Source: Candidatus Micrarchaeales archaeon (GTDB taxonomy: Archaea; Micrarchaeota; Micrarchaeia; Anstonellales; J096). From it: DNA of 26,010 nucleotides. Below, piece by piece: positions 3,693 through 24,904 of this stretch (within the stretch, counting starts at the first letter, position 1; every line of letters begins with the position of its first letter). The stretch lies in the NCBI GenBank assembly GCA_039793475.1, contig JBAMLP010000040.1, positions 1-26,010 of the forward strand. Reading direction: 5' to 3'. The notes below the pieces were generated by a model. It had not been told where the DNA came from and ran no database searches. It saw only the letters and a program-made list of their open reading frames with translations. Both the position numbers and the translations under genes were made by a program.

Positions 3693-4064
3693 CTAAACTA
3701 CTTTCAGCCCCTTTATCCCCTCATACTCATTCCTGTTTTTTGTGAGAAGAAATGCATCATTCCTAATGCAGATTGCTGCGTTTATTATCGCCCGCGTAGA
3801 GGTCCTAACCCCTTCTTTCATTCCTTCATGGTAGAATTTTGACGCAAGCTCCGCGCTCTGGCTGTCGAAACCAAGAATCTCTAGGTTCTTCATAAACCTA
3901 AGCACCGGAGCAATTGATTTCACACTCGAGAGAACCTCGAACATCACAACACTCGTGGTCACAATCTCTTCCTTTTCAATGTAGTATCTAAGCTTTTCTA
4001 TTGTCGCCCTCCTTCCCTCAAGAAAGTCTATTATTATGTCTGAGTCAAGGCAGATTTTCACCAT
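3693..4064 (-). CDS. vapC: PIN-domain VapC toxin
   Basis: LDSDIIID, TTSVVMFEV and LLTKN PIN motifs. ATG 4064 overlaps the antitoxin stop (TGATG) with RBS GAGGTGG upstream; the track start is 4073. Confidence 0.88.
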   Translation of the reverse strand: MVKICLDSDIIIDFLEGRRATIEKLRYYIEKEEIVTTSVVMFEVLSSVKSIAPVLRFMKNLEILGFDSQSAELASKFYHEGMKEGVRTSTRAIINAAICIRNDAFLLTKNRNEYEGIKGLKVV

Positions 4065-4276
4065 CACATCCACCTCTTCAGTGTAATCAGCTGCTTCTCA
4101 TCAACATCCCTAGGCCCGAGAATGCCAGCGAACTCCATTATGCTTGAGTCTGTTCTCTTCTCCTGCATGATGGAAACAAGGTATTCTATCGCCTCGGAAA
4201 AACTCATCCCCTTTGATTTTTTCAGCTTGTCCAGCTTCTCGTAAACATCATCCCTAATAGTAATTACACGCACCAT
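4064..4276 (-). CDS. vapB: VapB-type antitoxin (DUF217-like)
   Basis: ITIRDDVYEKLDKLKKSKGMSFSEAIEYL pattern; small gene directly upstream of and coupled to the PIN gene. Confidence 0.8.
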   Translation of the reverse strand: MVRVITIRDDVYEKLDKLKKSKGMSFSEAIEYLVSIMQEKRTDSSIMEFAGILGPRDVDEKQLITLKRWM

Positions 4277-4319: not shown

Positions 4320-4396
4320 TTTTCGTCTGGGATTAGGGGAAGTAGAGTATGTTGGTTGGAAAATGTGCATCTCCCTTACCGTCGGCAAACAGAAGG

Positions 4397-4434
4397 TATA
4401 TAAAACTATTTTTTGCTTTTTCCGTTGAGGTGAC
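4397..4434 (+). promoter_or_regulatory. ftsZ promoter TATA box and RBS
   Basis: TATATAAAA at 4397-4405 and GAGGTGA at 4428-4434, four nt before ATG 4439. Confidence 0.6.
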
Positions 4435-4438
4435 CAGG

Positions 4439-5512
4439 ATGGATAGTTTGATAAAAGACGTATTAAACGCCTCCTCGCAGGCAGGGGCGAAGGAGGAAGA
4501 GGATGTGGGAAACGAGCACATAAAAATCGTAACCTGCGGGGTTGGAGGAGCAGGGAACAACACCATAAACCGGCTTGTGAAAGCGGGCGTGAAAGGCACA
4601 GACCTTGTGGCAGTAAACACAGACCAACAGCACCTGAACATAGTGCATGAGAGGGCAAAGAAGGTGCTCATAGGAAAGAGCATCACAAAGGGCCTTGGTG
4701 CAGGCGGATACCCGGATATTGGTGAAAAGGCCGCAGAAGTGGACAGGCACCTAATCGAGAAGGAGCTCGAGGGCTCGCACCTTGTTTTCATATGCGCTGG
4801 AATGGGTGGAGGAACAGGTGGCGGAGCAGCACCGACAGTTGCAGAAATAGCAAAGGAGCAGGGCGCAATTACCGTTGCCATGGTTACATACCCGTTCGCT
4901 CTGGAAAGGGCGAGAAGGAAGAAGGCAGACGAGAGCATCACGAAGCTGAGAAAGCACTGCGATTCGGTTATAATTTTGGACAACAACAGATTGGTTCAGC
5001 TTGTCCCGAACCTTCCGATGACAGAGGCGTTTGCTGTCGCGGATGAAATTTTGGCGCGTGCGATTTCAGGTCTGGTGTGGACCATCACCCAGCCGTCCCT
5101 CATCAACATAGACTTCGCGGATGTAAGAAGCATAATGAAGGGAGGCGGAGTCGGCTTCATAGCTGTGGGAGAAGGAAAGGGAGCAGACAGGGTGAAGTCC
5201 GCGGCTGAAAGCGTCTTGAAGAACAGGCTGCTGGATGTAAGCTTTGAGGGTTCGAAGGGCGCGCTCATCCACATCTCCGGAGGAAGCGACCTCACTCTCG
5301 GCGACGCCATAAAGGCAGGAGAGATTATTACAGAACAGATGGACGCTGAGGCGAACGTAAAATGGGGTGCCAGGATAATGAACAACTACGAGGGCAAGCT
5401 TGAGATTGTCGCGATAGTCACTGGTGTGAGGGGAGCAAGCATTCTCGGCACATTCCCACAGGAGGAAGCGCTACCAGCACCAGCTTACTCAGGCGACCTT
5501 GACCTCCTCTAA
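4439..5512 (+). CDS. ftsZ: Cell division GTPase FtsZ, copy A (FtsZ2-like)
   Basis: GVGGAGNNTIN, AVNTD, GLGAGG, GMGGGTGGG, DNNRL and T7 loop PSLINIDFADVRSIMKGGG. Start moved to ATG 4439 because of the RBS; the track start is 4349. Confidence 0.96.
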   Translation: MDSLIKDVLNASSQAGAKEEEDVGNEHIKIVTCGVGGAGNNTINRLVKAGVKGTDLVAVNTDQQHLNIVHERAKKVLIGKSITKGLGAGGYPDIGEKAAEVDRHLIEKELEGSHLVFICAGMGGGTGGGAAPTVAEIAKEQGAITVAMVTYPFALERARRKKADESITKLRKHCDSVIILDNNRLVQLVPNLPMTEAFAVADEILARAISGLVWTITQPSLINIDFADVRSIMKGGGVGFIAVGEGKGADRVKSAAESVLKNRLLDVSFEGSKGALIHISGGSDLTLGDAIKAGEIITEQMDAEANVKWGARIMNNYEGKLEIVAIVTGVRGASILGTFPQEEALPAPAYSGDLDLL

Positions 5513-5540
5513 CTTTTTTCTTTTTTATTTTTTGTTTTTT
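5513..5540 (+). terminator. Oligo-T tract, putative archaeal intrinsic terminator between the ftsZ copies
   Basis: CTTTTTTCTTTTTTATTTTTTGTTTTTT immediately follows the ftsZ-A stop codon. Confidence 0.5.
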
Positions 5541-5573
5541 ATTGTCTGGGCAGTTGATGGTTCGGTGGTTGGA

Positions 5574-6584
5574 ATGACTGGAAACAACGCAGATGTTCGG
5601 ATTGCGGTAATCGGAGTTGGCGGTGCTGGAAGCAATGCGGTGAACAGGTTGAAGAAAAACAGAATAGAAAGCGCCCGGACGATTGCTGTAAACACGGACG
5701 CAAGGCATCTTAAGTTCATACATTCTGATGAAAAAATTCTCATAGGAAAAAGCATCACAAAGGGCCTTGGCGCTGGCGGAATGCCAGAGGTTGCAAAGAA
5801 ATGCGCAGAAGCTGACAGAAAACTTTTGAGCGAGAGAATAGGGGAAATGGACATTGTCTTCATTTCCGCAGGAATGGGTGGAGGAACAGGAACCGGCGCG
5901 GCGCCCATCATCGCAGATATTGCAAAGGAGCAGGGCGCAATTACCGTTGCCATGGTCACATACCCGTTTGCTATTGAGAGGTCGAGGATAAAAACAGCGC
6001 GGATGGGAATACAAAAACTCATCAATGTTTGCGACACCGTTGTTGTAATAGACAACAATAGAATGGTGCAGTATGTTCCAAACCTTCCGCTGGATAAAGC
6101 GTTCGAGCTTGCGGATAGCATAGTGGGAAGGGCTGTGAAGGCAATTGCAGATTCCATAGTTCTTCCATCCATGCTCAATATGGATTTTGCGGATTTCAAG
6201 GCAGTGATGGCGAAAAAAGGGCTTTCCATGATAAGCTTGGGCGAAGGAAAGGGAGCAAACAAGATTGAAGAGGCGGTGAAGAACACTCTCGAACACCCCC
6301 TTTTGGAAGTTGATTATGAGGATGCAAACGGAGCGCTGGTGCATGTTGAGGGAAGTCCGAAGCTCACTCTCGCTGAGGCAATAAGGGCAGGGGAGCTGAT
6401 GACAGTTAGTTTCTCGCCTGATTCTGAGGTGAAGCTCGGAGCCCGTGTAAACCCATCCATGAGTGAAGATGCGGTTGTTTTGACCGCGATAATAACAGGA
6501 GTGAAATCCCCACACATAATAGGAATGAGCGAGCCTAAACTGGCTACAACCGAACAGAAGGCCGAAATGTTTGCACTGGCATAG
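5574..6584 (+). CDS. ftsZ: Cell division GTPase FtsZ, copy B (divergent FtsZ2-like)
   Basis: GVGGAGSNAVN, AVNTD, GLGAGG, GGGTGTG and T7 loop PSMLNMDFAD. ATG 5574 is preceded by GGTGG; the track extension from 5499 merely translates the T-tract. Confidence 0.95.
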   Translation: MTGNNADVRIAVIGVGGAGSNAVNRLKKNRIESARTIAVNTDARHLKFIHSDEKILIGKSITKGLGAGGMPEVAKKCAEADRKLLSERIGEMDIVFISAGMGGGTGTGAAPIIADIAKEQGAITVAMVTYPFAIERSRIKTARMGIQKLINVCDTVVVIDNNRMVQYVPNLPLDKAFELADSIVGRAVKAIADSIVLPSMLNMDFADFKAVMAKKGLSMISLGEGKGANKIEEAVKNTLEHPLLEVDYEDANGALVHVEGSPKLTLAEAIRAGELMTVSFSPDSEVKLGARVNPSMSEDAVVLTAIITGVKSPHIIGMSEPKLATTEQKAEMFALA

Positions 6585-9542: not shown

Positions 9543-11168
9543 TCATCGCTCTGCCTCTTCAGTCGGTGTCGCGGCAGGAGCGCCGGATGTTTCTTCCTCA
9601 ACTTTAGTAAACTCATCTTTCACAGCCAAAACTTCCACTTTGAATTCTCCGCTCGCTTCATTGTATTCGCTTATCCTTCCTTTTATAACTTTCCCGGCAG
9701 GTACGAGTACTGTTCCATCCTCACGGGTAAGTTGCTCCCATGTTTTGAATTCAAACACCTGCCCGCTCGCCGCTAAATAAGGGAACAAAACTTTCTTTGT
9801 ATTCGCCCAGGAAAATACACCAACATTTTTCCTGGTTAGTGTTTTGGTCTCCCAGTTTTCCTTTCCTGCAATTTTTTTGGCTGTTTCCTTATCCGTTTCC
9901 CAAGTACGATCTATCTCACTTAGGTTTCTTTTTACCATCTTCTCTGCACTCAGCCATCCAGCATCAGTCTCAACATAGAAGTTTTCCATTAGTTCAGTTA
10001 CTCCTTTTTCCGGTTTTAAATCCTTTTCAATTTCCCTTGTAAGCGTTAAAACCTGCCCAACAGCTTCCTTTTCTTCCCCTCGTCTCTCTTCTTCCTCTCG
10101 TGCTCCGCCACCCTCTCCTGTTCCCGGAAGCTCTCCCTTTTCCTCTTTAGGTGCAAGCCCAAGCAATCCGTAAATTCCATTTTTTGTGTCAATTCCAAAA
10201 AAACCATCAGGAGTTACTCCAGCAGCCCTCTGCATTCTCTCAACAGCCGCTCTTGTGTCATCACCATATTTCCCATCTACCTTTATCTTCGGACCGCGCA
10301 CGACTCCTTTTTCAACGAGCGTGTTGTAAAGATGCTGAAGGATTGCAACCTGCTCACCATACCACAATCCGCTTGCCCCTCCTATCCAGTTTTTTCCTTT
10401 GTACACCCCCGAAAGCCCATAGTCAAGCGTAATCAAATCCAAAAGCTCCCTTGGTCCCATAGCCATTATTTCTGGGCTCAGTTCAATGTCCGGCAGTTTC
10501 ACGGATGGCTTTGGTGTTGGTTTTGCCCGTATAGGTACCTCCTCCTTTTTCTCAACCATTTCCGGCGCGATTCCGGGTGCTGGGATTGGTTCTCCTATAT
10601 ATTCTTTGAGTTTTTCTGGTTCCTTTTTTCCAATGCGTAATTCCTTAATATACCCTTTCTCAACATCACTTTTGTACAAAATGTACCTAAGCACCGGCCC
10701 CTTCATTGTTTTTCTTATTTCTACTCTTGAAGACCATCCACCCAAATATTTTGCCAACTTTTTATTCGCCCAATCATAAAAACCAATAGGGTCAAGCTCA
10801 GTAAGATTTGCTAATGCTACAGCGTATATCGATGGTGGCATCGCCGATTGCATACGGTGGAGTCTTGCTTTCCAAAAATTTCTCCATTCCTCAGTAACAG
10901 GGGCTTCAATCATGACCGCATCATCCCTGACCTTTACGACTTTTCCATGAAAATCATACCTACCCAACAGACGACCTCCCAGATCACTAGCAACCGTGAC
11001 CTCATCTCCTATTTTTAATTTATTATACTTTTCCATAATAACTTCTTTTTCTTCTTTTTTCTCTTCTTTTTTCTGTTGTTTTTGTTGTTCTGCTTTAGGG
11101 GGCTCAATGTATACTTTCGTTTTATCCGCAGGCATAGGTTCCACAAATGGTTGCTTTTGTTTTGCCAT
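9543..11168 (-). CDS. Multi-domain protein with a central peptidoglycan-binding (PG_binding_1-like) domain
   Basis: VAILQHLY..KVDGKYGDDTRAAVERMQRAAGVTPDGFFGIDT is a textbook PGBD pattern, flanked by Pro/Glu/Lys-rich linkers. The N-terminal region has a possible SH3/KOW-like barrel (LKIGDEVTV..GKVVKV). No signal peptide. Confidence 0.8.
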   Translation of the reverse strand: MAKQKQPFVEPMPADKTKVYIEPPKAEQQKQQKKEEKKEEKEVIMEKYNKLKIGDEVTVASDLGGRLLGRYDFHGKVVKVRDDAVMIEAPVTEEWRNFWKARLHRMQSAMPPSIYAVALANLTELDPIGFYDWANKKLAKYLGGWSSRVEIRKTMKGPVLRYILYKSDVEKGYIKELRIGKKEPEKLKEYIGEPIPAPGIAPEMVEKKEEVPIRAKPTPKPSVKLPDIELSPEIMAMGPRELLDLITLDYGLSGVYKGKNWIGGASGLWYGEQVAILQHLYNTLVEKGVVRGPKIKVDGKYGDDTRAAVERMQRAAGVTPDGFFGIDTKNGIYGLLGLAPKEEKGELPGTGEGGGAREEEERRGEEKEAVGQVLTLTREIEKDLKPEKGVTELMENFYVETDAGWLSAEKMVKRNLSEIDRTWETDKETAKKIAGKENWETKTLTRKNVGVFSWANTKKVLFPYLAASGQVFEFKTWEQLTREDGTVLVPAGKVIKGRISEYNEASGEFKVEVLAVKDEFTKVEEETSGAPAATPTEEAER

Positions 11169-11172
11169 ACCA

Positions 11173-11208
11173 TCACCGTTAGTTATTCTGTTATAAACTC
11201 TTTATAAA
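11173..11208 (-). promoter_or_regulatory. TATA box and RBS for the PGBD gene
   Basis: TTTATAAA at 11208..11201, a second TTTATAA at 11197..11191, and GGTGA at 11177..11173 upstream of ATG 11168. Confidence 0.5.
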
Positions 11209-11234
11209 TATATCCCCGGGTCGTTGATGTTTAA

Positions 11235-12254
11235 TCAAACCGGTTTCTGATAGTACGACCTTTCTGCATACCTTTTATATTCAGATGAAAGATGAATGTA
11301 AACACCCGCGCCATCCTTTATTTTATCGATTATCTCTGTTGCACTTTTTCTGGGAAGAGCAGGACATCCGTGGCTTCTTCCTATTGGTTGCTCGTTCTGC
11401 GCCATTTCTTCTGAAACATAGTCTGCTCCATGTATTACTATATTCCTTTCCCTTGCGTTGCTGTTGTACCCTATCTCCAGACCATCGAGCCGTAAAGAGT
11501 AGCCATTTTTGCCAGTGTATGTTTCTGCCGTAACAAACAGCCCTATCGAACTCTTGTGCGAACCAATATTGTTTGAAACACTTGTAACATTTGCTAAACC
11601 AGAACCTTTTCCATGGGCGACAAGTTCTGTCCTTTCGAGTTTTCCGGTTTTCATGTTAAAAAGAAAAAACCTTTTTTCATAGGAAGGTTTGGAATAATCT
11701 ATGATCACGAAGTAATCTGTGTTTTTTATTTTTCCCGCGTTCACACCGTTTCTGTATGCTATCATTCCGGCGCTGAATGCCTCATAGCTCAACCCCTCTC
11801 TCTCCGCGCCGCTCGAAACCCACATTTCTCCCAGCTCCATTTCTGTTTTCTTTGGTTTCTCTTGAAGAATTGAAGGTTCGAATTTTTTAGGAGGTTCAAA
11901 TTTTTGAGCTGCGATTGGTGTGGGCATTTTCTCTATTCTCAGAAGCTCAATGACCCCTCTCTTTGTTTCAATCCCAAAAACACCATCAATCTTTATTCTC
12001 ATCTTGGTTTTTTCATTTACAGCACTTTGAATTGCCCTGACTGCCTTTTCTGTTTTTTCATCATAAACGCTGGTCAGTTCTATTTTTTCGCCTTCAACGA
12101 GCCCTCTTTCAACAAGGTAATTGTATATCATTTTAACAATGAGTACGTCCTTTCCTTCCTGCACCCCTCTTTTTCCCCCAACCCACCTATCTTTACTAAC
12201 ATCCAATTCGCCTACAAGTCCCTCTGCGGAAAAAGGCAATTTTACAGCTGGCAT
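11235..12254 (-). CDS. Peptidoglycan-binding domain fused to a YkuD_2 (murein L,D-transpeptidase catalytic) domain
   Basis: C-terminal IIDYSKPSYEKRF, VAHGKGSG, SSIGLFVTAETYTGKNGYSLRLDGLE, NSNARERNIVIHGADYV and GRSHGCPA follow the YkuD_2 family pattern with catalytic His and Cys intact. N-terminal PGBD (DGVFGIETK). ATG 12254 preferred over TTG 12272. Confidence 0.9.
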   Translation of the reverse strand: MPAVKLPFSAEGLVGELDVSKDRWVGGKRGVQEGKDVLIVKMIYNYLVERGLVEGEKIELTSVYDEKTEKAVRAIQSAVNEKTKMRIKIDGVFGIETKRGVIELLRIEKMPTPIAAQKFEPPKKFEPSILQEKPKKTEMELGEMWVSSGAEREGLSYEAFSAGMIAYRNGVNAGKIKNTDYFVIIDYSKPSYEKRFFLFNMKTGKLERTELVAHGKGSGLANVTSVSNNIGSHKSSIGLFVTAETYTGKNGYSLRLDGLEIGYNSNARERNIVIHGADYVSEEMAQNEQPIGRSHGCPALPRKSATEIIDKIKDGAGVYIHLSSEYKRYAERSYYQKPV

Positions 12255-12284
12255 GAGTAGTTTATGATGCAAAAAGAATAAAAA

Positions 12285-13298
12285 CTAAACTTTCATCGCC
12301 CTTACTTTTACTCCCGCAGCTTTCAACAATTCAAGCGCATCATCTGCGAGAGGGTACTGCTCATTATACACAACCTCAACAATTCCAGCATTTATTATCA
12401 TTCTCGAGCAATACAGGCATGGAGAATGGGTTGTGTAAATTACTCCGCCCTTTACGCTTACTCCATGGTATGCTGCCTGCACAATGGCATTCTCTTCTGC
12501 ATGCGCGCAAAAACACGATTCCAGATTCTTCCCGCTTTCGCTGAATGAATTGCATCTGGGGCATCCTCCCTCATAGCAGTTTTTCACCCCTCTTGGCGTT
12601 CCGTTATACCCGGTTGAAATGACCCTCTTGTCCTTCACAATAACCGCGCCTATTTTTCTTTTTATGCAGTTTGCGCGGGAAGAAACGACCTTCGCGATAT
12701 TCATAAAATACTCATCCCACACAGGCCTTTCAAATTTAAATTTCACAAGAACTTTCTGCAAAATTCCGTCCACGCTCTCCTGCAACCTTTCCAAAGTGGA
12801 ATCATTCAAAATCGTAAAATCAGCCATTTTTGCGGTTTTTTTCAACTGCTGTTTATACCCCTCCTTACTTTCTTCCTCCATCTTCTCCAATTTCAGAAAC
12901 TCCTCAAAAGTTTGCGGGTCCTCCTCCCTCCCTCTCGCCTTTATCCTTTCAAACCTCACCTCAGCTGGTGCGTTTATGTAAAGCAGATAAAAATTCTGGA
13001 GTTTTTTCAGCTCCTCAACTTCGCCAGGATTTCTTATAGAATCCACAACATAATTTTTCCCCCTTTCCATTTTTTTTATGGCCATGCTGGCAAGCGTTCC
13101 CTCCCCAAATTTTTTTCTCATTTCATTCCCTTTTTTTATCAGATTTTCCCTTGTGAGCGGCTTTCCTTCCTTTACCACCTCTTCTCTTATCACATCTGAA
13201 AGGGAGAGGTAGTAAAAACCTTTTTTCTTCAGATACTCCGCAACAGTTGTTTTTCCGGCGCAGTTTTCGCCCGTTAGCCCAAGGAATATGTTTGACAT
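12285..13298 (-). CDS. P-loop nucleoside monophosphate kinase-like domain fused to dCMP deaminase
   Basis: N-terminal GLTGENCAGKTT (Walker A), DSIRNPGE and R-F-E-R lid. C-terminal WDEYFM, GYNGTP, HAEENA and PCLYC zinc motifs of dCMP deaminase (ComEB-like). Confidence 0.9.
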   Translation of the reverse strand: MSNIFLGLTGENCAGKTTVAEYLKKKGFYYLSLSDVIREEVVKEGKPLTRENLIKKGNEMRKKFGEGTLASMAIKKMERGKNYVVDSIRNPGEVEELKKLQNFYLLYINAPAEVRFERIKARGREEDPQTFEEFLKLEKMEEESKEGYKQQLKKTAKMADFTILNDSTLERLQESVDGILQKVLVKFKFERPVWDEYFMNIAKVVSSRANCIKRKIGAVIVKDKRVISTGYNGTPRGVKNCYEGGCPRCNSFSESGKNLESCFCAHAEENAIVQAAYHGVSVKGGVIYTTHSPCLYCSRMIINAGIVEVVYNEQYPLADDALELLKAAGVKVRAMKV

Positions 13299-16869: not shown

Positions 16870-17199
16870 TCACATAAACTTTATTCCACAGGAGGGGCAC
16901 CTTGTTGCATAGTAATCCATTCTGTATCCGCACCTCGGGCATATGTATAATGTTTTTCCCATCCTTGCTTCGAGCTCCTCAAAATCAAACCCGCATTTCT
17001 CGCATTTTTTTGCATCTAGTTGGTTTGCAGTTCCGCATTTTGGGCATTTTTTGCGGAACATGCTCTTTATTCTTGTTCCGCACTTTGGGCATCTCTCCAT
17101 CTCTAATGTTATCTCTTCTCCACAGTTCGGGCATTTGTATTTTCCGGCATATTTCGGTTTTCCTTTTACCCATCCAAGCAACAGGTCTAATATTCCCAT
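16870..17199 (-). CDS. Double zinc-ribbon protein
   Basis: Six CxxC pairs (CPNC, CPKC, CPKC, CEKC, CPRC, CPSC) in 109 aa, with a short amphipathic N-terminus MGILDLLLGWVKG. Confidence 0.85.
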   Translation of the reverse strand: MGILDLLLGWVKGKPKYAGKYKCPNCGEEITLEMERCPKCGTRIKSMFRKKCPKCGTANQLDAKKCEKCGFDFEELEARMGKTLYICPRCGYRMDYYATRCPSCGIKFM

Positions 17200-18032
17200 C
17201 TAGCTATCAGCACCCCTAATGCTGTTAAAATAAATGCTGAAGGGCACATGCCTGGTTGTTGTTGAGGTTGGGGTTCCTGTTCCTCCTCTTCCGGTGGCTG
17301 TTCTACCGGAGGCTTCTCTTCCGCAGGCGGCTGCTCCTCTTCCGGAGGGGGTATGTTTATCTCTTGCTCCTCTTCAGGGGCAGGAGGAATGCATCCTTCG
17401 AGTAATGCCTGTGCATCTGCTTTCACTTGGGTTGCGAGTATGTTTGCTTTTGGAGCTTCACATATTGCCATCAGCCTTTCCATCTCATCTATTTTGTTTT
17501 TTATCTCTGTTGCGTTACATCCCTTTTCTTCAATCTGAGAAACCAATCCCTCAATTTCCGCGATGTTTTTTTTCAGGATTATCTCGTTTGTTGTTTCCCA
17601 GTGGTCCACCCTTATTGTAATCTCTTTTCTTACAGTTAGCCCTCGATTCTCAGGGTCATCGTACCGGAGTTCGATCGCGGGCGTTTCTACTGTTCCGTTT
17701 CCCTTTCCTCCGTAGTAAAAATCAAATTGAACCTGCTTATTCTCAAAATCTCCTTCCTTAACGACAAGCAGAAGCCCTCTATCTACCCATCCGCCGGTTC
17801 TCATATCATAGGTTGAGTAGTATACAGGCACATCCTCATTATACTCATTACTAAGCCCAAGTTTTATCATAAACTCAAATGGTCCATTATTTGATGGATG
17901 ACAGTTCATCGGTTGCATGGAAATAACAGGCTTAACTTCTTTTACAGTTATTTTCATTTTTGACTCCAAGGTTGCTGTAAAAACCATCCCCAACAATCCA
18001 AACAACACAAACAGTGCAATAATTTTTCTCAT
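17187..18032 (-). CDS. Secreted surface protein with Pro/Glu-rich stalk and Cys-containing C-terminal anchor
   Basis: Signal peptide MRKIIALFVLFGLLGMVFT, beta-rich domain, coiled-coil-like segment, PPPEEEQPPAEEKPPVEQPPEEEEQ linker, then GMCPSAFILTALGVLIARWEY. Confidence 0.8.
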   Translation of the reverse strand: MRKIIALFVLFGLLGMVFTATLESKMKITVKEVKPVISMQPMNCHPSNNGPFEFMIKLGLSNEYNEDVPVYYSTYDMRTGGWVDRGLLLVVKEGDFENKQVQFDFYYGGKGNGTVETPAIELRYDDPENRGLTVRKEITIRVDHWETTNEIILKKNIAEIEGLVSQIEEKGCNATEIKNKIDEMERLMAICEAPKANILATQVKADAQALLEGCIPPAPEEEQEINIPPPEEEQPPAEEKPPVEQPPEEEEQEPQPQQQPGMCPSAFILTALGVLIARWEY

Positions 18033-18093
18033 TCTCTCCCCCTATTTCTTTGAATACAAAACATTTTTAAGCACTTACTTTCATCTCCCAACG

Positions 18094-19212
18094 ATGGATC
18101 CGTTCTTTTGTTTGCCTATTATTGTGCTCATCTCTGTTTTTGTGATTGCATTTGGTTTTATGCTTGCAGGCATTCTGAACAACCCCCAGTTTGATGCAAA
18201 AGTAAAGGAGGAGATGAGAGTAACCATAACAGGAATTCTGTTGCTTATATTCGTTGTTGGAATATTCACTTCAATAAATGCATTCATAAAAACATACACT
18301 GGTTATGAAGATGTTGGTACCCTCTCTGGCTTTGTGCTGGAAAAATTCGAGAACAAAACCAAATTTCTGTTTGTTGAATACTCAACTGTGCTTACAAGGA
18401 TTGGGCAGTATGCTGGCCTCAGCTACCATGTTTCCATTCCTATTGCTGTCTATCAAGTGAATATTGGAGAGGCTCCTTTCACCGGGCTTGGTTCTGTTTC
18501 CTCCTCTCTCCATGGAATAGGGAATGTTCTTTCCATATTCTATTTCGCTTTGGTTTCGCTGAAAATTGTCATTCCGTTCGCAGCATGGATAAGCAAGGAC
18601 TACCTTCTTCCAATTGCGTTTGCATTTAGGTTGATGCCCGGAACAAGGAAAATAGGCGCAACGCTTATTGCGCTGGCTCTTTCTGCAGCCATAGCTCTGC
18701 CAGCGGCTGTTGTTGTAGTCGGAGACCTTCTGGATTCTGCGGTTTCCATGCCCCATTACGCCGCCATCGAGATGAAGAGCATGCATTCCAGAATGCCAGA
18801 CCCGATGAGAATGAGCGTAATTCCGCCGATCGTCTGCTCCCCTGCGTTTCAGGCAATAGCCCAACCTACAGACCAGGTTTATGACTGGGCAATATGCACG
18901 CCGCTCTCTTGGGTTGGTGTTCCTTACCCTATTTGCGAACTAGTTGTTGACTTTGCTTACAATATTGTATTCACCATAGCCGCAATACTCCAGTTTTATC
19001 AGATAATCGGATTAACATTCTGGGTGGATACGCTTGCGGAAGTTTTCGATCCACTCATGGATTTTTTCATTCCTGCAGTAGTTGAGCTGAGCACAACACT
19101 TACAATATTCCTTGTTTCAATCACTCTCATAGTTGTTAGCGCCTACCGCTCCATTTCCGTTGCGCTTGGAGGGGAGTTCTTCATGTATGGATTTTCAAGG
19201 TTTACGGGGTGA
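18094..19212 (+). CDS. Polytopic membrane protein, paralog 1 of 6 (CedA/VirB6-like)
   Basis: Shared motifs FMLAGILNNPQFDAKVKEE, LLPIAFAFRLMPGTRKIGATLIA..LP and C-terminal SVALGGE. ATG 18094 chosen because the track start 17917 overlaps the opposite-strand gene. Confidence 0.75.
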   Translation: MDPFFCLPIIVLISVFVIAFGFMLAGILNNPQFDAKVKEEMRVTITGILLLIFVVGIFTSINAFIKTYTGYEDVGTLSGFVLEKFENKTKFLFVEYSTVLTRIGQYAGLSYHVSIPIAVYQVNIGEAPFTGLGSVSSSLHGIGNVLSIFYFALVSLKIVIPFAAWISKDYLLPIAFAFRLMPGTRKIGATLIALALSAAIALPAAVVVVGDLLDSAVSMPHYAAIEMKSMHSRMPDPMRMSVIPPIVCSPAFQAIAQPTDQVYDWAICTPLSWVGVPYPICELVVDFAYNIVFTIAAILQFYQIIGLTFWVDTLAEVFDPLMDFFIPAVVELSTTLTIFLVSITLIVVSAYRSISVALGGEFFMYGFSRFTG

Positions 19213-19217
19213 TTTTT

Positions 19218-20132
19218 ATGAAAAAAGCATTTCTCCTGCTGATGTTTTTTTCCTTTCTCTTTGCGCAGAATGTGTGCGACCCCACAACAGGAATAGACGA
19301 TTTCTGGTGGCAGGTCATCACTATTCTCGCTGGTGTTTCTGCCCTTTTGATTGCAGTAGTTTACATCATCGGTTCAGCCTTCCATTTTCCAAACTACATT
19401 GTGCTCGCAAAGGATGAGCTCTCCCACCTCATCCTAACCCTCTTCATAGTGTTGCTCATGCAGGGAATATTCGTTGGAAGCTGTGGAATTTTTTCCTCCT
19501 ACCTCTCTGCGTATGCAGGGGTTGAGAACCCCATAGAGTACTCAAAAACCTTCTTTTCAAAAATGCAGAACGAGCTCCAGAATATAATAAAAACCCTGTA
19601 CAGCGACTATTTTGACTATCGCATCCAGTCCTCTGTTTTCATGGGAAGGTATGACATAGGTGGTAGCGGAGTGATGCTCTACACGAACTACTGGATGGAT
19701 GTTGTTGCCTCGCAGATTGAAACCATCATAAACCTTCTTTCCATTCTACTTCTCTCAGCAAAGATGCAGGCAATAATGTTCGAGCTCGCTGTGGATGTGA
19801 TTGTTCCGTGGAGCATACCGTTTGCAGTAATTGCGCGTCTTATTCCGCAGGCAAGGGAAGCAGGCAACATCCTCCTTGCGATCGTATTCTCATTCTACAT
19901 TCTTCTTCCATTCTCCTATTCAATTTTCGCAGCGAGCTATGATAAAATTTCAATTCCCTGCTCATCCAAAATCGCCGCAGACCCGTTCTTCGGTGGCTGT
20001 GAAGCAAACGGTTTCATCGCATTCGCAAAGTTTTTCCCATACACAATACTTTTCCCGAACATAGCGCTTGCAATTGTCATAAGCTCCATAGATGCAATAA
20101 GAAGAACGCTCTCGTTTGGTGGTGTACCATGA
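19218..20132 (+). CDS. Polytopic membrane protein, paralog 2 of 6
   Basis: Signal peptide MKKAFLLLMFFSFLFA; YIIGSAF..LAKDEL; IPFAVIARLIPQAREAGNILLA..LP. RBS GGGGTGA precedes ATG 19218 (GTG 19209 is an alternative). Confidence 0.75.
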   Translation: MKKAFLLLMFFSFLFAQNVCDPTTGIDDFWWQVITILAGVSALLIAVVYIIGSAFHFPNYIVLAKDELSHLILTLFIVLLMQGIFVGSCGIFSSYLSAYAGVENPIEYSKTFFSKMQNELQNIIKTLYSDYFDYRIQSSVFMGRYDIGGSGVMLYTNYWMDVVASQIETIINLLSILLLSAKMQAIMFELAVDVIVPWSIPFAVIARLIPQAREAGNILLAIVFSFYILLPFSYSIFAASYDKISIPCSSKIAADPFFGGCEANGFIAFAKFFPYTILFPNIALAIVISSIDAIRRTLSFGGVP

Positions 20133-21847
20133 AAAAAATACTAGTGCTGTTCCTGCTGGCTGTTTTGCTTTTTGCCCAGCCACCAACCTACACAGAAGCT
20201 TTTGAAACCCTCCCGAAAACAACCTTTGTTTCAACAGTCTTTTCCAACTGGCAGCTCGTTGCTCTCATCCTCCTTCTGATTTCACTAATGGTTGCTATAT
20301 TCGCTATAGTTGGGGGAAAAGCTTTTAGGCTGTCCCAGCTTGAGGCATGGGGAAAGGTTGAGCTGGGCGAGATATTCATAAATGCACTCATAATAATTTT
20401 CATACTTTCATTCCTCGGTTTTCTTGATGCCCTTGCATCCCAGGTAATTCCGTGCACTCAGAACTGCATTGCTGGAAGTGCTTCTGAATATTTAGGAGAG
20501 TATATAACACAAGTAAGAGATGTTGCCAAGGCAATATACTCAGATGCGATTACTTACGGAAAAATCTCCTCACTCTCTCGTGGTTTTGGGTCGGATACAA
20601 TATGGACTACCCAACTTCCATCATGGCTTTACTACCACATTAGTAACAGGCCTTTTGCATGGTTTGCCATTCACCTAACGCGCGACAATGTTTTGATGGA
20701 TTTTTTAAGTTCTGCATACTCCCTTTTGTTGGCTGAAAAATTCTTTCTGGATAATGTTGCATTTGTTTTCGGGCCTTTTTTCATACTTACAGGGGTAATA
20801 CTTCGCTCATTCTTCCTAACAAGAAGGGTTGGCGGGACGTTCATTGCTGTTGGATTTGGGGCCATGGTTGTTTTCCCAGCAATGTTCTTGCTTACTTTTG
20901 CAACAACAGAAAATAGATTCTCTCTTGATGTAAGCTATAACTTTGGCCAACAGTGCCCTCTTGAATGCAAAATGCAGGTTCCGGTTGCATACAATTCAAC
21001 ACATGCAATCTCATACGAAGAGCTCATACAAATTGCACAGGATAAGAATTGGACGAATGAGGAGTTTGAAGAAATATACAATGGAAGCAGAGAGGGGCTG
21101 GATGGCGTTTACTCGTGCAACTATCCGCCTTTCTGCCCCTCTTTCTGCCGGATTCTTCCCTATCCCCTTGAAATTTCTGAATGTGTAGATGCGCAGAAAA
21201 ACTGCTCTCAGGTTTTAGATAGCAGGGAAAAATGCTTTACAAACAGGGTTGTTCTCGAACCGAATTATGAGGAATTGAAAACTGTTGATTCACGGTGCAG
21301 GGTCGTTGCACCGCTTTCCATTCCGACCTCAGAGGAGTATTGCCCATCTTTTTGCATGGCAGTTTACACAAACAAAACCTCCTACTGCTATAACAATATA
21401 AACTATGAAAAGTTTAAGGATGGGTGCAAAAGCTACTATCCGCAAAATCCAGAACAAATATGGAAGGACGCAAACGAGAGTTTCTATGCTGAGAACAGGG
21501 AGGGAATGATTGAAACGGCTAAGCAAACAAGCGTTTACATAATACACGAGGGTATGGGAGAGGCTGATTGCAAAGCATTGCTAGATTTTGATGACCCTGG
21601 CTTTGGCTACAACCCACCAGTTTTTGCAAGCTGCGAGGACCACTGCACAACCCAAGCTCCGACCCAGACACACTCCGCAATCGGCAAGCTCACAACCATT
21701 CCCTATGTTGAAAGTGTTGCAAAAATGATGATAGACGCCTACCTTCTTCCGCTCTTCAACATAGCTGTCACAATAGTTTTTATCTCAGGGCTTGCTTCAT
21801 TTTTGGGAGGGGAACTTTTCGTTCCTGCTTTGGGTGAACTCATATGA
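20129..21847 (+). CDS. Polytopic membrane protein, paralog 3 of 6, with a large Cys-rich extracellular insert
   Basis: Signal peptide; GGKAF..AWGKVEL; GVILRSFFLTRRVGGTFIA..FP; 16-Cys insert; C-terminal SFLGGE. ATGA overlap with the upstream gene. Confidence 0.78.
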   Translation: MKKILVLFLLAVLLFAQPPTYTEAFETLPKTTFVSTVFSNWQLVALILLLISLMVAIFAIVGGKAFRLSQLEAWGKVELGEIFINALIIIFILSFLGFLDALASQVIPCTQNCIAGSASEYLGEYITQVRDVAKAIYSDAITYGKISSLSRGFGSDTIWTTQLPSWLYYHISNRPFAWFAIHLTRDNVLMDFLSSAYSLLLAEKFFLDNVAFVFGPFFILTGVILRSFFLTRRVGGTFIAVGFGAMVVFPAMFLLTFATTENRFSLDVSYNFGQQCPLECKMQVPVAYNSTHAISYEELIQIAQDKNWTNEEFEEIYNGSREGLDGVYSCNYPPFCPSFCRILPYPLEISECVDAQKNCSQVLDSREKCFTNRVVLEPNYEELKTVDSRCRVVAPLSIPTSEEYCPSFCMAVYTNKTSYCYNNINYEKFKDGCKSYYPQNPEQIWKDANESFYAENREGMIETAKQTSVYIIHEGMGEADCKALLDFDDPGFGYNPPVFASCEDHCTTQAPTQTHSAIGKLTTIPYVESVAKMMIDAYLLPLFNIAVTIVFISGLASFLGGELFVPALGELI

Positions 21848-22866
21848 GAAGGATGTTGTTCCTCCTATTGCTGTTTACTCTTTCTTTTGCAGCCAACCCA
21901 GAGAACTGGGAGAGATCCTCTATTCTTGCGATGCTCATCGCAGCACTCCTCATTACTTTTGTTTATGCAGGAGGAATAGCTTTTGAGAGTGATGGGCTGA
22001 AGCTTGCAGCGAAGCAGGAGGCGTACGAATGGATTACTACTCTTGGAATGTTCGCCCTCTTCCTTTTTGTGGTTTCACTCATAGATCAGTTTTCTGCTGG
22101 AGCTGCTTCCTACTGGTTCCCACATGAAAATTTAGATTCAATCCCAACACCCAAGCACATAAATTTTGCAATAAACATAAGCGAGAGGCTTCTTTCTGAG
22201 CAGGCAATCCTTCTTAGCCAGATAGCAACCATCTCAAAAGCCATCTCCGATGAATCCACAAAGAGCTTCTCCTGTTCAGCAATATACGCTGGTTTCGAGC
22301 TGAATCCGTGCATGGGGTTCAACGCGTTTTCCAACCCTCTCAACATGTATGGAGCTACGGTTGGCGCTTCCATAGCAACAACAAACTCTCAAATATTTCT
22401 TCTGAAGCTCACCCCTCCATTCGTCCTTCTCATAGTTTTCCCGCTAGGAATATTTATGAGGTGCTTTGCAGTGAGCAGGGGGCTTGGCGGGTTCCTGCTT
22501 TCCCTTGCGTTTGGGCTTTATTTTGTCTACCCGCTCATGATTGTTTTCATGTACGGAGTTACCACGAATTACCAGGTCATCAACACTCTTAACCCAATTA
22601 TAAATGTGGATACTTCGAATATTAAATGCAAGGCAACGAACATAGGCATCAGTCCTTCCGTAGACCCAGCGCGTGATGCCATGGACGCAACAAGAACAAT
22701 GGTTTATGCAGACTATTCCGGGGCCGTTTTCCTTGTGCTCGTAAAATCCATGTTCTCTGAAGGAGTTTCCCTTCTTGTGTTGATCTCCCTGATAGGCGCA
22801 TCATCAAAAGCCTTCGGTGCAGAGGTTTATGCCTTTGTGCTCGCGCAACTTGAGAAGATAGCATGA
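21844..22866 (+). CDS. Polytopic membrane protein, paralog 4 of 6
   Basis: Signal peptide; YAGGIAF..AAKQEA; FPLGIFMRCFAVSRGLGGFLLS..YP; KAFGAE. ATGA overlap. Confidence 0.78.
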   Translation: MRRMLFLLLLFTLSFAANPENWERSSILAMLIAALLITFVYAGGIAFESDGLKLAAKQEAYEWITTLGMFALFLFVVSLIDQFSAGAASYWFPHENLDSIPTPKHINFAINISERLLSEQAILLSQIATISKAISDESTKSFSCSAIYAGFELNPCMGFNAFSNPLNMYGATVGASIATTNSQIFLLKLTPPFVLLIVFPLGIFMRCFAVSRGLGGFLLSLAFGLYFVYPLMIVFMYGVTTNYQVINTLNPIINVDTSNIKCKATNIGISPSVDPARDAMDATRTMVYADYSGAVFLVLVKSMFSEGVSLLVLISLIGASSKAFGAEVYAFVLAQLEKIA

Positions 22867-23951
22867 CCTGCACAACATTCACCCCGGAAATGCTGAACAT
22901 GGACTTTGTGTACACAGCCATGGCCATAGGAACCGCTTCCTCTGCGATAGCGATCTCAATAGTTTATATGATAGGAAAAATAACAAACAACCCAAGATTG
23001 GATGTGTGGGCGCATGATGAACTTCCCCAGCTTTTTTTCTCAGCGCTGTTCGCAATTTTCATACTCGGCTTCCTAAATATTGGAATGATGTACAAAGTTT
23101 CTGCGCTTTCTGAACTTACAAATTTTACTGTTCAGAATGGAGAGATGTGCTTGTACGATTTTGCAGATGCCTATCTTGATGACATGGCCATGTATGTGCA
23201 CAACACCATGCGCATCACAAGAATATATACTATGATGGCAGGTTTTATTTCTGCTATATGGAAATACCAGTGCACCTCTGTATGGTGCTTCCTTGCAGGC
23301 CAGGGGGTTGGCTTAAACCCTGATGCCTGGGTCTCTTTAATTTCTGCTGTTCTTAACGCGCAGGCCCAGACCTCCTCTCTCGCTCTTCTCAGTATTCTTG
23401 CGCAGAAATACCTCCTTCGCTCTTTTATTAGCGGTGGGTTTCTCCTTATTATCCCGCTTGGCCTTGTCCTCCGCTCTGTTCCATTTGCAAGGAGGGTTGG
23501 CGGGATTTTGCTTGCAATAGGAGCAGGCTTCATAGTTTTCTTCCCAATTCTTCTTGTTGTTGAAGGGCTTGTTTTCAGGCCTGAAATGTGGGGATACGGC
23601 AATCAGGAGAATATTGATTATTTAACATCTGAGGGAGGGCTCAACATTGATGAAACCGACCCGTATTTTAAGGGCGGGCTGGAGTGGAATATACTTCTTT
23701 TCGGCCAGTTTGATTATTTTTTCGAGGAGGATGATGGCAGGATATTCTTATGCAAAAACCTCGGCCCGCCATGGTCTAACCCAGCATGCTCTGTTTCACT
23801 TGATAGGCTGCTTGCGTATGGTGGGATAAGCTTTTTAATTTCCTCGTTCCTCCTTTCATTAAACTTCATAGGTACTTCCGCTGGGATAATCGCGCTCGGA
23901 AAATTCCTTGGAGAAGAAATAGAGATTGCAAGGTTTTTGAGGATGGTGTGA
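22863..23951 (+). CDS. Polytopic membrane protein, paralog 5 of 6
   Basis: YMIGKITNNPRLDVWAHDEL; IPLGLVLRSVPFARRVGGILLA..FP; KFLGEE. ATGA overlap. Confidence 0.78.
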   Translation: MTCTTFTPEMLNMDFVYTAMAIGTASSAIAISIVYMIGKITNNPRLDVWAHDELPQLFFSALFAIFILGFLNIGMMYKVSALSELTNFTVQNGEMCLYDFADAYLDDMAMYVHNTMRITRIYTMMAGFISAIWKYQCTSVWCFLAGQGVGLNPDAWVSLISAVLNAQAQTSSLALLSILAQKYLLRSFISGGFLLIIPLGLVLRSVPFARRVGGILLAIGAGFIVFFPILLVVEGLVFRPEMWGYGNQENIDYLTSEGGLNIDETDPYFKGGLEWNILLFGQFDYFFEEDDGRIFLCKNLGPPWSNPACSVSLDRLLAYGGISFLISSFLLSLNFIGTSAGIIALGKFLGEEIEIARFLRMV

Positions 23952-24904
23952 TGGTGGATTTTCTCGCTGATTGGGAAACCAACTGGGGCCTTATTGCCCT
24001 CCTCTCAGTGTTCATACTTTTTTTCATAGAAATAATACATTACATGTTTGCGAAAATGTTCATGGACCAGAGAGGGCAGACGATTGCAATTGCTGAAATA
24101 ATAGACAATGTTGCGATCGCGTTAATAATAATATTCCTCATCTTCATCATAGACGGAATCTCAACAGCTCTCACATTCCCCGGCATTGAGAGGCCGATAA
24201 ACATTCTTGCAATCGAACAATCAAAAGAACAAACACTTCTCATGCTTACCTCAACGCAGGAAATACTGAATTCGGCTGCATCTGATGCGAGATGGGCTAT
24301 GCCCCTCTACTCCACTTACCTAGGGCTTATGGGTATTCCGGTTTTTCAGGGAAGCTGGTGGAGCGGTATATACAAAAGGGTTTCTGAGGTTCAGTTCCTC
24401 ACGCAGAAAGGAACAGAGCTCGCGTTTTTTCTGGCTGCAGAATACTATGTTCTGGATTACATATCAAAGTACATGCTTGCAATATTCCTTCCGATTGGAA
24501 TAGTCCTCCGTGCGATGAAGATTACGCGCGGAATAGGTGCGCTTTTCATTTCAATCGCAATCGCGCTTTACTACGTCTACCCTTCAATTTTATGGATTGC
24601 TTCAACCGGCTTTTTTGCTCCTCCAAAATCGCCAGCGCTCGAAACCGAAACAGTATGCAACTACCCAACTTACCTAAGTATAGGAAGGGGGTTTGATTTG
24701 GATTTCAGCAGTTTTTCCATGCAATCGGCGCAGATGGGAATAAAGCATAAATCAATGCAGGGGTTCATGACCTCTGTTTTCTACCACCTTCTGCTCGGAA
24801 ACCTCGCTGCCCTCTCTCTCGCGTTTGTTTTCATAAGGTTTGCGACTGTTGTGCTCGGAGGAATGCCCACGGCATTTATTTCAATGGTTTCAAAATTGGT
24901 TTAG
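23948..24904 (+). CDS. Polytopic membrane protein, paralog 6 of 6
   Basis: YMFAKMF..IAIAEI; LPIGIVLRAMKITRGIGALFIS..YP; VVLGG. Start GTG 23948 or ATG 23951, overlapping the upstream stop. Confidence 0.75.
   Translation: MMVDFLADWETNWGLIALLSVFILFFIEIIHYMFAKMFMDQRGQTIAIAEIIDNVAIALIIIFLIFIIDGISTALTFPGIERPINILAIEQSKEQTLLMLTSTQEILNSAASDARWAMPLYSTYLGLMGIPVFQGSWWSGIYKRVSEVQFLTQKGTELAFFLAAEYYVLDYISKYMLAIFLPIGIVLRAMKITRGIGALFISIAIALYYVYPSILWIASTGFFAPPKSPALETETVCNYPTYLSIGRGFDLDFSSFSMQSAQMGIKHKSMQGFMTSVFYHLLLGNLAALSLAFVFIRFATVVLGGMPTAFISMVSKLV

Follow-up and report, generated by a model that had tools for sequence, protein, structure and literature searches.

The question raised by this locus is what two proteins with peptidoglycan-binding domains (PGBDs), one of them joined to a catalytic domain of the L,D-transpeptidase fold, may be doing in a micrarchaeon. 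Other archaea are believed to be what DPANN archaea live on, and the hosts of Micrarchaeota lack peptidoglycan. The window analyzed is the whole 26,010-nucleotide stretch of contig JBAMLP010000040.1. Its source is a Candidatus (Ca.) Anstonellales archaeon (Micrarchaeota, DPANN) of hot-spring origin, named from NCBI names on 99%-identical proteins of metagenome-assembled genomes (MAGs): proteins 99% identical to both W541 and W345, the two proteins in question, are annotated by NCBI in Ca. Anstonellales and Ca. Micrarchaeia MAGs, and the public runs with the locus are DNA runs of hot-spring metagenomes. W541 appears to be the resident gene of its chromosomal position, and W345 a chimera of archaeal and bacterial parts inserted next to it.

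Catalytic domain and build of W345

The W345 gene and its surroundings are made up as follows.

12285-13298: dcd, a 337-amino-acid (aa) fusion of a P-loop nucleoside/nucleotide kinase and a dCMP/cytidine deaminase, whose position is kept in all relatives
12255..12284, reverse strand: spacer from the dcd stop codon (12285-12287) to the W345 ATG, with A/T-rich TTTTTATT about 26 nt upstream of the ATG
11235..12254, reverse strand: W345 gene, an open reading frame (ORF) of 339 aa from the ATG at 12254, a predicted lineage-specific chimera
11940..12185, reverse strand: N-terminal PGBD-like module of W345, residues 30-111 of the 345-aa form, a divergent member of a Micrarchaeota subfamily
11799..11939, reverse strand: P/K/E-rich linker with a short KFEPPK/KFEPS direct repeat, AlphaFold2 (AF2) predicted local distance difference test (pLDDT) below 50 at residues 105-130
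11292..11798, reverse strand: YkuD_2 (L,D-transpeptidase-fold) catalytic domain, PF13645 E = 1.1e-58
11364..11375, reverse strand: catalytic S-H-G-C motif, Cys codon 11364-11366, read from the sequence

The maximal ORF spans 11235-12272(-) and opens with a TTG at 12272, giving 345 aa; a start at the ATG 12254, giving 339 aa, is more likely, and the 339-aa form is also NCBI's call (P0008). No Shine-Dalgarno sequence is present in the upstream spacer (12255..12284), and the distance between TTTTTATT and the ATG would fit a leaderless transcript.

The C-terminal half of W345 is a YkuD_2 domain. The PF13645 match covers model positions 3-169 of 169, PF03734 is matched at E = 2.4e-7, and more than 6000 homologues are found at 40-59% identity, the named ones outside its own cluster being all bacterial (Vicinamibacterales, Chitinophagaceae, Flavobacteriaceae). 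The best 119 matches after that cluster hold PF13645/PF03734 only, with no PGBD, and cover the C-terminal 42-73% of W345; among the 95 of them that are complete bacterial proteins, 79 have a hydrophobic signal-like N-terminus. The bacterial YkuD_2 proteins, annotated as the 'murein L,D-transpeptidase catalytic domain family', are about 200-270 aa long with an N-terminal signal peptide. W345 resembles them in its full-length PF13645 match and in the retention of the catalytic His and Cys, and differs in its archaeal host and in having a PGBD and a linker in the place of the signal peptide.

The active site is intact. W345 keeps 46 of the 51 positions conserved in at least 90% of the bacterial homologues, including H214, H275 and S294-H-G-C297; S294, G296 and C297 are invariant in the 119 homologues, in the context VIH275-G...R-S294-H-G-C297-P-A. 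The AF2 model of the domain has pLDDT values above 90, and in Foldseek searches it matched LdtMt1/2, Bacillus subtilis YkuD, Ldtfm and Pgp2 with probability 1.00 and E of about 1e-5. One of these structural matches, Pgp2, is an L,D-carboxypeptidase; no solved close relative was found by sequence at E <= 0.01. From sequence and model together, the catalytic domain is very probably still active. Its distribution indicates that it was acquired horizontally from bacteria, and the whole protein is best read as a chimera in which the signal peptide of a bacterial enzyme has been replaced by an archaeal PGBD module and linker. A preliminary description of the window, made from the sequence alone, had favoured lineage-specific adaptation 'rather than a fresh transfer'; this does not hold for W345, since its YkuD_2 half is bacterial and the gene is missing at the same position in six relatives.

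The resident gene, the insertion and the PGBD subfamily

The neighbouring gene provides the background against which W345 has to be read.

9543..11168, reverse strand: W541 gene, ORF of 541 aa, member of an Anstonellales-specific family
11169..11213, reverse strand: W541 promoter/ribosome-binding block, with TATA-like TTTATAAA at 11201-11208 and GGTGAT at 11172-11177
10626..11033, reverse strand: N-domain of W541, residues ~46-181, a small SH3-like barrel and a helical/beta part, AF2 pLDDT 70-89
10356..10478, reverse strand: lead-in ahead of the PGBD, residues 231-271, made up of the short helix ELLDLITLDYG and then YKGKNWIGGASGLWYG, conserved across the subfamily
10158..10355, reverse strand: PGBD core, residues 272-337, with helices 272-286, 303-316 and 326-335, AF2 pLDDT ~88-90
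9603..10061, reverse strand: C-domain, residues ~370-522, GVFSW..T....F.Y, the most conserved part of the family by invariant alignment columns

W541 consists, in order, of a K/E/Q-rich head, the N-domain, a linker, the extended PGBD, an acidic linker and the conserved C-domain. Its homologues form seven clusters among 5.8 billion proteins, the named ones from Ca. Anstonellales; a metagenome scan added the loci L013 and L014 to the family, and a profile search for distant relatives added one match only, to the PGBD alone. The gene lies constantly between dcd and aglB in the related loci L001-L007 and in L014, at 32-71% identity. Because this position is shared, W541 is taken to be a resident, vertically inherited member of the subfamily at a fixed chromosomal position.

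In seven of those loci (L001-L005, L007 and L014) no YkuD_2 gene stands next to the W541 orthologue. In L001, L004 and L007 the block TAT.TTTATAAA.AGTTTAT...GGTGAT.GTATG is kept immediately after the stop codon of dcd, whereas in the window it follows the stop codon of W345; the spacer upstream of W345 aligns only partially with this ancestral block. Because the promoter block follows the W345 stop here and the dcd stop in relatives, the W345 gene is read, from this comparison, as a recent lineage-specific gene that entered between the end of dcd and the promoter of W541. This insertion is genuine and was assembled repeatedly: there are five near-identical copies of W345, the window's and four on contigs of differing lengths, with the W541 orthologue adjoining each, and both junctions are spanned by contigs of an independent 2017 run, with no deletion variant. 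Traces of a mobile element around W345 were sought and rejected, the short repeats present being at chance level only.

A separate observation concerns L006 (GCA_038894355.1), in which a different gene, of 567 aa, lies between dcd and the PGBD gene (L006:5641-7344 and L006:7390-9201). The product of this gene contains several Gly-rich hydrophobic segments and matches no Pfam family, and the 541-family protein downstream of it, P0006, has its N-terminal region replaced and bears one membrane helix. This interval, with dcd on one side and the PGBD gene on the other, has the look of a gene-gain hot spot.

The insertion could also be effectively neutral, W345 being a recent acquisition without a role, on its way to decay, in which the shared lack of a signal would be incidental. 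The confinement of W345 to one species-level lineage, the acceptance of a different gene at the same position in L006 and the state of its PGBD, the most divergent of the subfamily and with a core motif lost, agree with that. Nevertheless, the ORF is intact, the catalytic domain retains its conserved positions and all catalytic residues as described above, the architecture of module, linker and domain is orderly, and the GC content at third codon positions (GC3) of W345, 0.35-0.39 against 0.37 for the resident W541, argues against a very recent arrival. We consider neutrality distinctly unlikely. As to GC3 itself, both PGBD genes (window:9543-12254) lie at 0.35-0.39 against 0.43-0.58 for the surrounding housekeeping genes; this low value holds despite the vertical inheritance of W541, and expression level or amino-acid bias may explain it.

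The two PGBDs are related to each other. In BLASTP, W541 residues 261-336 pair with W345 residues 30-111, with 33 identities in 82 (40%) and E = 9e-15, and both peptides quoted in the preliminary description are present exactly, one in each ORF. The W541 PGBD (residues 261-337, 10158-10388) scores 34.4 bits against PF01471, for a cut-off of 23, and all seven members of its family match. The W345 module scores 19.5 bits, below the cut-off, and is assigned to PF01471 because of its similarity to W541. In the model of W541, residues 272-335 form the three-helix bundle of the PGBD fold, and Foldseek placed the core at probability 0.99 with SleC (9h68) and the Zn DD-peptidase 1lbu, and at 0.75 with phiKZ gp144 (3bkh); these alignments span 72-88 columns, with E = 0.06-1, the domain being short. 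Phage endolysin PGBDs likewise match it. Both D-G-x-[FY]-G motifs flanking helix 2 are present in W541 (VDGKYG, PDGFFG). W345 keeps the second (IDGVFG), the first being replaced by T-S-V-Y-D, and AF2 gives its module pLDDT values of 50-70.

This relationship reaches a limited set of proteins. When the 92-aa W345 PGBD was searched with phmmer against 1.84 billion representatives, 30 matches were obtained at E <= 1e-3, and the only ones covering the whole domain in a single stretch were the 541 family (P0001, P0002 and P0005, E from 2e-7 to 2.5e-9) and P0129, P0130, P0136, P0137, P0138 and P0149. Names, where given, are Micrarchaeia or Anstonellales. All members are K/E-rich and have in common a YKGKxWIGG lead-in, YNxLVExGxIxGxKIxVDGxYG and DGYFGIDT; the lead-in takes the form L-x-Y ... 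Y-K-G-K-x-W-I-G-G, followed by the helix 1 and loop residues Y-N-x-L-V-E-x-G-x-I-x-G-x-K-I. In a scan of GTDB genomes, one per species, with a four-sequence PGBD alignment, lead-in and core occurred together in Micrarchaeota contigs only, bacterial contigs having the core only; it added no more than two Micrarchaeota loci, each lying at the end of a contig. The resemblance of the two domains is far beyond chance, and the comparisons point to a Micrarchaeota-restricted PGBD subfamily comprising several signal-less, K/E-rich proteins. In this respect the preliminary description was right, since it had taken the two domains for paralogues of a lineage-specific subfamily, and they do not derive from unrelated bacterial donors.

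It had further described a shared non-canonical N-terminal extension holding W-x-GG and YN-x-LVE(K/R)G, of which only the first part survives. The lead-in with W-x-GG and the preceding YKGK is a subfamily-specific extension outside the canonical domain, N-terminal to the stretch over which solved PGBDs can be aligned (profile positions ~35-90). The second motif is ordinary PGBD: residues 272-286 of the W541 model (EQVAILQHLYNTLVE) form its first helix, and the alignment of the subfamily profile to solved PGBDs (SleB, 1lbu, endolysins) starts at about the end of helix 1. Because of this model helix and the Foldseek alignments, YN-x-LVE(K/R)G is assigned to helix 1 and the loop between helices 1 and 2, with unusual residues.

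Local duplication had been proposed as the source of the W345 module, and here the comparisons point in different directions. No other member of the subfamily is as divergent as this module, a long branch at 30-38% identity to every member and roughly equidistant from them. In column bootstraps its nearest relative was P0005 in 35%, P0138 in 28%, W541 in 4% and P0129 in 1%, although the 541-family members taken together were nearest in 56%. A derived insertion, N-EKT-x-M-x-I, is common to W345 and P0129/P0178, a 368-aa protein with an N-terminal PGBD whose gene lies at another place in these MAGs, as their common accession series shows; this shared insertion conflicts with the 1% bootstrap figure of P0129. 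Because P0129/P0178 is encoded elsewhere in the same MAGs, the organism has at least three PGBD paralogues. An archaeal, within-genome origin of the W345 PGBD is well supported by these comparisons, and the same does not hold for tandem duplication from the neighbouring W541 gene.

The gene of the third paralogue has surroundings of its own. P0178 comes first in an apparent operon (L015:5278-13107), ahead of two proteins, one of 1338 aa and one of at least 657 aa, in neither of which a signal or a Pfam family was found. The operon directly follows an AbiEii toxin gene and a 193-aa ORF, a putative antitoxin, and may be a module that is mobile or serves host interaction; no similarity to it was found in the 567-aa insert of L006.

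Regarding the other domains of W541, the overall AF2 model has a mean pLDDT of 58.8, and the C-domain lies at 27-63. Pfam finds no catalytic family in any of the seven family members, and nothing that matches their C-domain. Foldseek searches of the model against PDB and BFVD gave no significant match for the N-domain, returning only PGBD matches and small-barrel noise. By eye, the barrel that opens the N-domain (KIGDEVTV…GKVVKVRDDAVMIEAP; window:10900-11033) looks like the YajC soluble domain, and Pfam YajC is weakly matched (E = 0.003) in one W541-family member, reported without its name or the region matched.

Export signals, membrane proteins and the proposed action of W345

Whether W345 could meet peptidoglycan depends on its location. 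Export signals were checked by Kyte-Doolittle hydropathy over 19 residues and by inspection for twin arginines. Over the whole protein the maximum 19-residue hydropathy is 0.85 in W541 and 1.05 in W345, and no twin arginine is found at the N-terminus of either. None of the 13 subfamily members examined has a hydrophobic N-terminus, so that the absence of a Sec or Tat signal, correctly noted before for the two proteins, extends to all 13 and is a family trait rather than an annotation accident. The export signal or anchor typical of bacterial YkuD_2 members is likewise missing, with no hydrophobic segment anywhere in W345. These absences are meaningful because nearby genes show recognisable Sec-type N-termini, obvious at 17187-18032(-), 19209-, 20129- and 21844- (for example MRKIIALFVLFGLLGMVF and MKKILVLFLLAVLLFA). 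A signal peptide at an alternative start was considered and rejected: stop codons close both ORFs upstream, and neither protein has a hydrophobic stretch, so none is possible.

A signal-less protein is most simply placed in the cytoplasm, and one may suppose that W541 and W345 remain there, the PGBD-like module serving for general interaction or for soluble ligands and W345 trimming imported muropeptides or D-amino-acid peptides for nutrition. In favour of this, none of the 13 subfamily members has a signal or a membrane-spanning segment, the K/E-rich composition resembles that of cytoplasmic neighbours, and the bacterial signal peptide was lost and not kept. ElsL of Acinetobacter baumannii, reportedly a cell-wall-recycling YkuD-type L,D-carboxypeptidase without signal peptide and located in the cytoplasm, is weakly matched by W345 in NCBIfam (E = 0.011). 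The match is marginal, however, with 15.6 bits against a cut-off of 270; ElsL has no PGBD, and a recycling pathway would be without reason in an archaeon. Moreover, W345 is a YkuD_2 protein, and the bacterial proteins of that family are exported; the Pfam scans of the window ORFs revealed neither a muropeptide transporter nor a partner recycling enzyme; and in one 541-family protein, P0006, a membrane helix lies N-terminal to the PGBD. We regard a cytoplasmic role as somewhat unlikely.

The preliminary description had offered a different solution, in which the W345 PGBD is a tandem duplicate of that of W541 and both proteins are exported by a CedA/VirB6-like apparatus encoded 6 kb away by an operon of six paralogues.

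17917-24904: six consecutive overlapping ORFs for polytopic membrane proteins, distant paralogues of each other (blastp E from 1e-14 to 1e-4)

These six are true distant paralogues, and the set is conserved in Anstonellales relatives; W541 and W345 are adjacent, on the same strand and 40% identical in the aligned region, and the joint bootstrap value of the 541 family given above also favours the proposal. Four of the six begin with a hydrophobic, signal-like or membrane-spanning segment. No family was matched by any of them (Pfam E <= 5, NCBIfam E <= 0.1), CedA and VirB6/TrbL included, and no ATPase of VirB4, HerA or CedB type was found by Pfam among the 20 window ORFs scanned, the sole P-loop protein being the kinase-dCMP deaminase fusion. 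Wherever a relative offers sufficient flanking sequence, the operon is found close to the W541 orthologue, whether W345 is present or not. The conserved block of about 25 kb around the operon and the 541 gene also holds primase, ligase, FtsZ and AglB. Because the whole block co-occurs regardless of W345, this co-occurrence is housekeeping-block synteny and says nothing on export; nothing in the gene content seems to link W345 to the membrane-protein operon. Together with the 4% bootstrap figure of W541 and the derived insertion that W345 has in common with the third paralogue of the same genome, these results make the combined proposal of duplication and dedicated exporter highly improbable. 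With respect to the operon itself, its first ORF (431 aa) overlaps the divergent gene of a 281-aa secreted protein by 116 nt (17917-18032), and the orthologues of this ORF are 369-374 aa long, which places its true start probably further downstream.

Taking into account that: (i) the catalytic domain is bacterial in its relatives and intact in its active site; (ii) it is joined to a module of a Micrarchaeota PGBD subfamily, and (iii) neither part carries an export signal, we propose, as somewhat better than an even chance, that W345 is a chimera of an archaeal PGBD and a bacterial YkuD_2 domain acting on the stem peptides of peptidoglycan. In the model, the Cys/His active site would attack an L,D bond of the stem peptide, in a carboxypeptidase, endopeptidase or exchange transpeptidase reaction, while the PGBD module would keep the enzyme on its substrate. 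W345 would be harmless to its producer, an archaeon without peptidoglycan; it could be synthesised in the cytoplasm, and neither compartmentalisation nor an immunity protein would be needed. Release, which like catalysis and substrate holding we infer, would bring it into reach of bacterial walls or their debris along a path that is neither Sec nor Tat, for example through lysis, vesicles or cell contact. In another version, it would work within the cell on imported wall fragments.

Several points weigh against this proposal. The known or proposed hosts of Micrarchaeota are archaea without peptidoglycan (PMC12892359), so that the target is not obvious. The simplest reading of a signal-less subfamily is cytoplasmic, which is awkward to reconcile with wall binding. 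The PGBD of W345 appears degenerate, with its low PF01471 score and one DG motif lost, and binding may be gone. YkuD_2 has no characterised or solved close member, which makes the type of reaction a guess. Finally, as an insertion in a single lineage, the gene could be neutral.

A bolder view is that the YKGKxWIGG module is an invention of the Micrarchaeota that takes signal-less proteins to an extracellular target through an undescribed export or contact path, the target being bacterial cell walls or a wall-like polymer of the host. We consider it unlikely. If it were true, W345 would be direct genomic evidence of a hot-spring micrarchaeon attacking or feeding on bacteria, and not only on archaeal hosts, and the whole signal-less subfamily, with W541 and the giant proteins of the P0178 operon, would be part of a host-interaction toolkit.

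The borrowing of bacterial wall enzymes by archaea is a known theme, published in 2025, and the domain names of W345 are already in public annotation. In Halobacteriaceae, a resident PG_binding_1 module acquired differing bacterial catalytic domains, giving modular peptidoglycan hydrolases; over the archaeal examples of these enzymes, 32% have a recognised signal peptide and 68% do not (PMC12352652). W345, with a wall-binding PGBD and a wall-active YkuD_2 domain, falls within their definition, whereas W541, with a binding domain only, falls outside it. Woldo and Danwoldo of Halogranum salarium resemble W345 in occurring in an archaeon without peptidoglycan, in combining a PG_binding_1-type module with a bacterial catalytic domain, in the proposed swap of the catalytic part onto a resident module and in their patchy distribution among close relatives. 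They differ in having Tat signals and in being found in the supernatant (PMC12352652), in their M23 or glucosaminidase hydrolase domains and in binding domains that trace to Actinomycetota; W345 has the YkuD_2 fold, a Micrarchaeota-specific binding module and no signal.

Signal-less delivery has its own parallel in the Tae5/Tlde1 effectors (DUF2778) of type VI secretion systems (T6SS), which are also L,D-transpeptidase-fold enzymes without signal, act on the peptidoglycan of another cell, are toxic only in the target periplasm and are delivered by a non-Sec route (bioRxiv 10.1101/2020.02.18.954545). They belong to another clade of the superfamily and, unlike W345, come with an immunity protein and the T6SS, neither of which was found among the scanned window ORFs. 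Within DPANN, Pacearchaeota and Woesearchaeota encode large murein-like lytic transglycosylase proteins, which have been taken to hint at interaction with bacteria (PMC8204110). These share with W345 the presence of bacterial-type wall-acting domains, and differ in being huge, predicted extracellular, glycosidase-type and from other DPANN phyla. Surveys of the Micrarchaeota (PMC12892359, PMC8561730) make no mention of peptidoglycan, murein, transpeptidase or cell walls, with one exception, a lysostaphin-like M23B peptidase in a Norongarragalinales MAG. What is new in the present case is the YkuD_2 catalytic domain, the Micrarchaeota-specific extended and signal-less PGBD subfamily and the clear history of insertion and fusion.

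An intact peptidoglycan-directed enzyme in a micrarchaeon would point to contact with bacteria, be it antagonism, the use of wall debris as food or a host range not yet recognised. As a natural annotation, the fusion also ties an opaque, signal-less PGBD-like subfamily to cell-wall chemistry. Furthermore, W345 offers a clean example of archaeal gene building, in which a bacterial catalytic domain would have been grafted onto a resident targeting module and its signal peptide discarded. The practical value of the finding is modest.

Other genes of the window

The window holds archaeal housekeeping genes, namely those for an eIF-2B-family protein, an ATP-dependent DNA ligase, the AglB/STT3 oligosaccharyltransferase and both primase subunits, in addition to dcd and two FtsZ genes, the second of which was identified by synteny only. 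No tRNA or Rfam feature was detected in the window, and there is no sign of a virus or defence origin, PHROGs matches being limited to the endolysin PGBDs. In relatives, a VapB/PIN(VapC) pair lies between the FtsZ genes and the DNA ligase gene; a candidate PIN ORF occurs in the window at 3693-4073(-). The tandem FtsZ genes (window 4349-6584) adjoin aglB, as they do in relatives.

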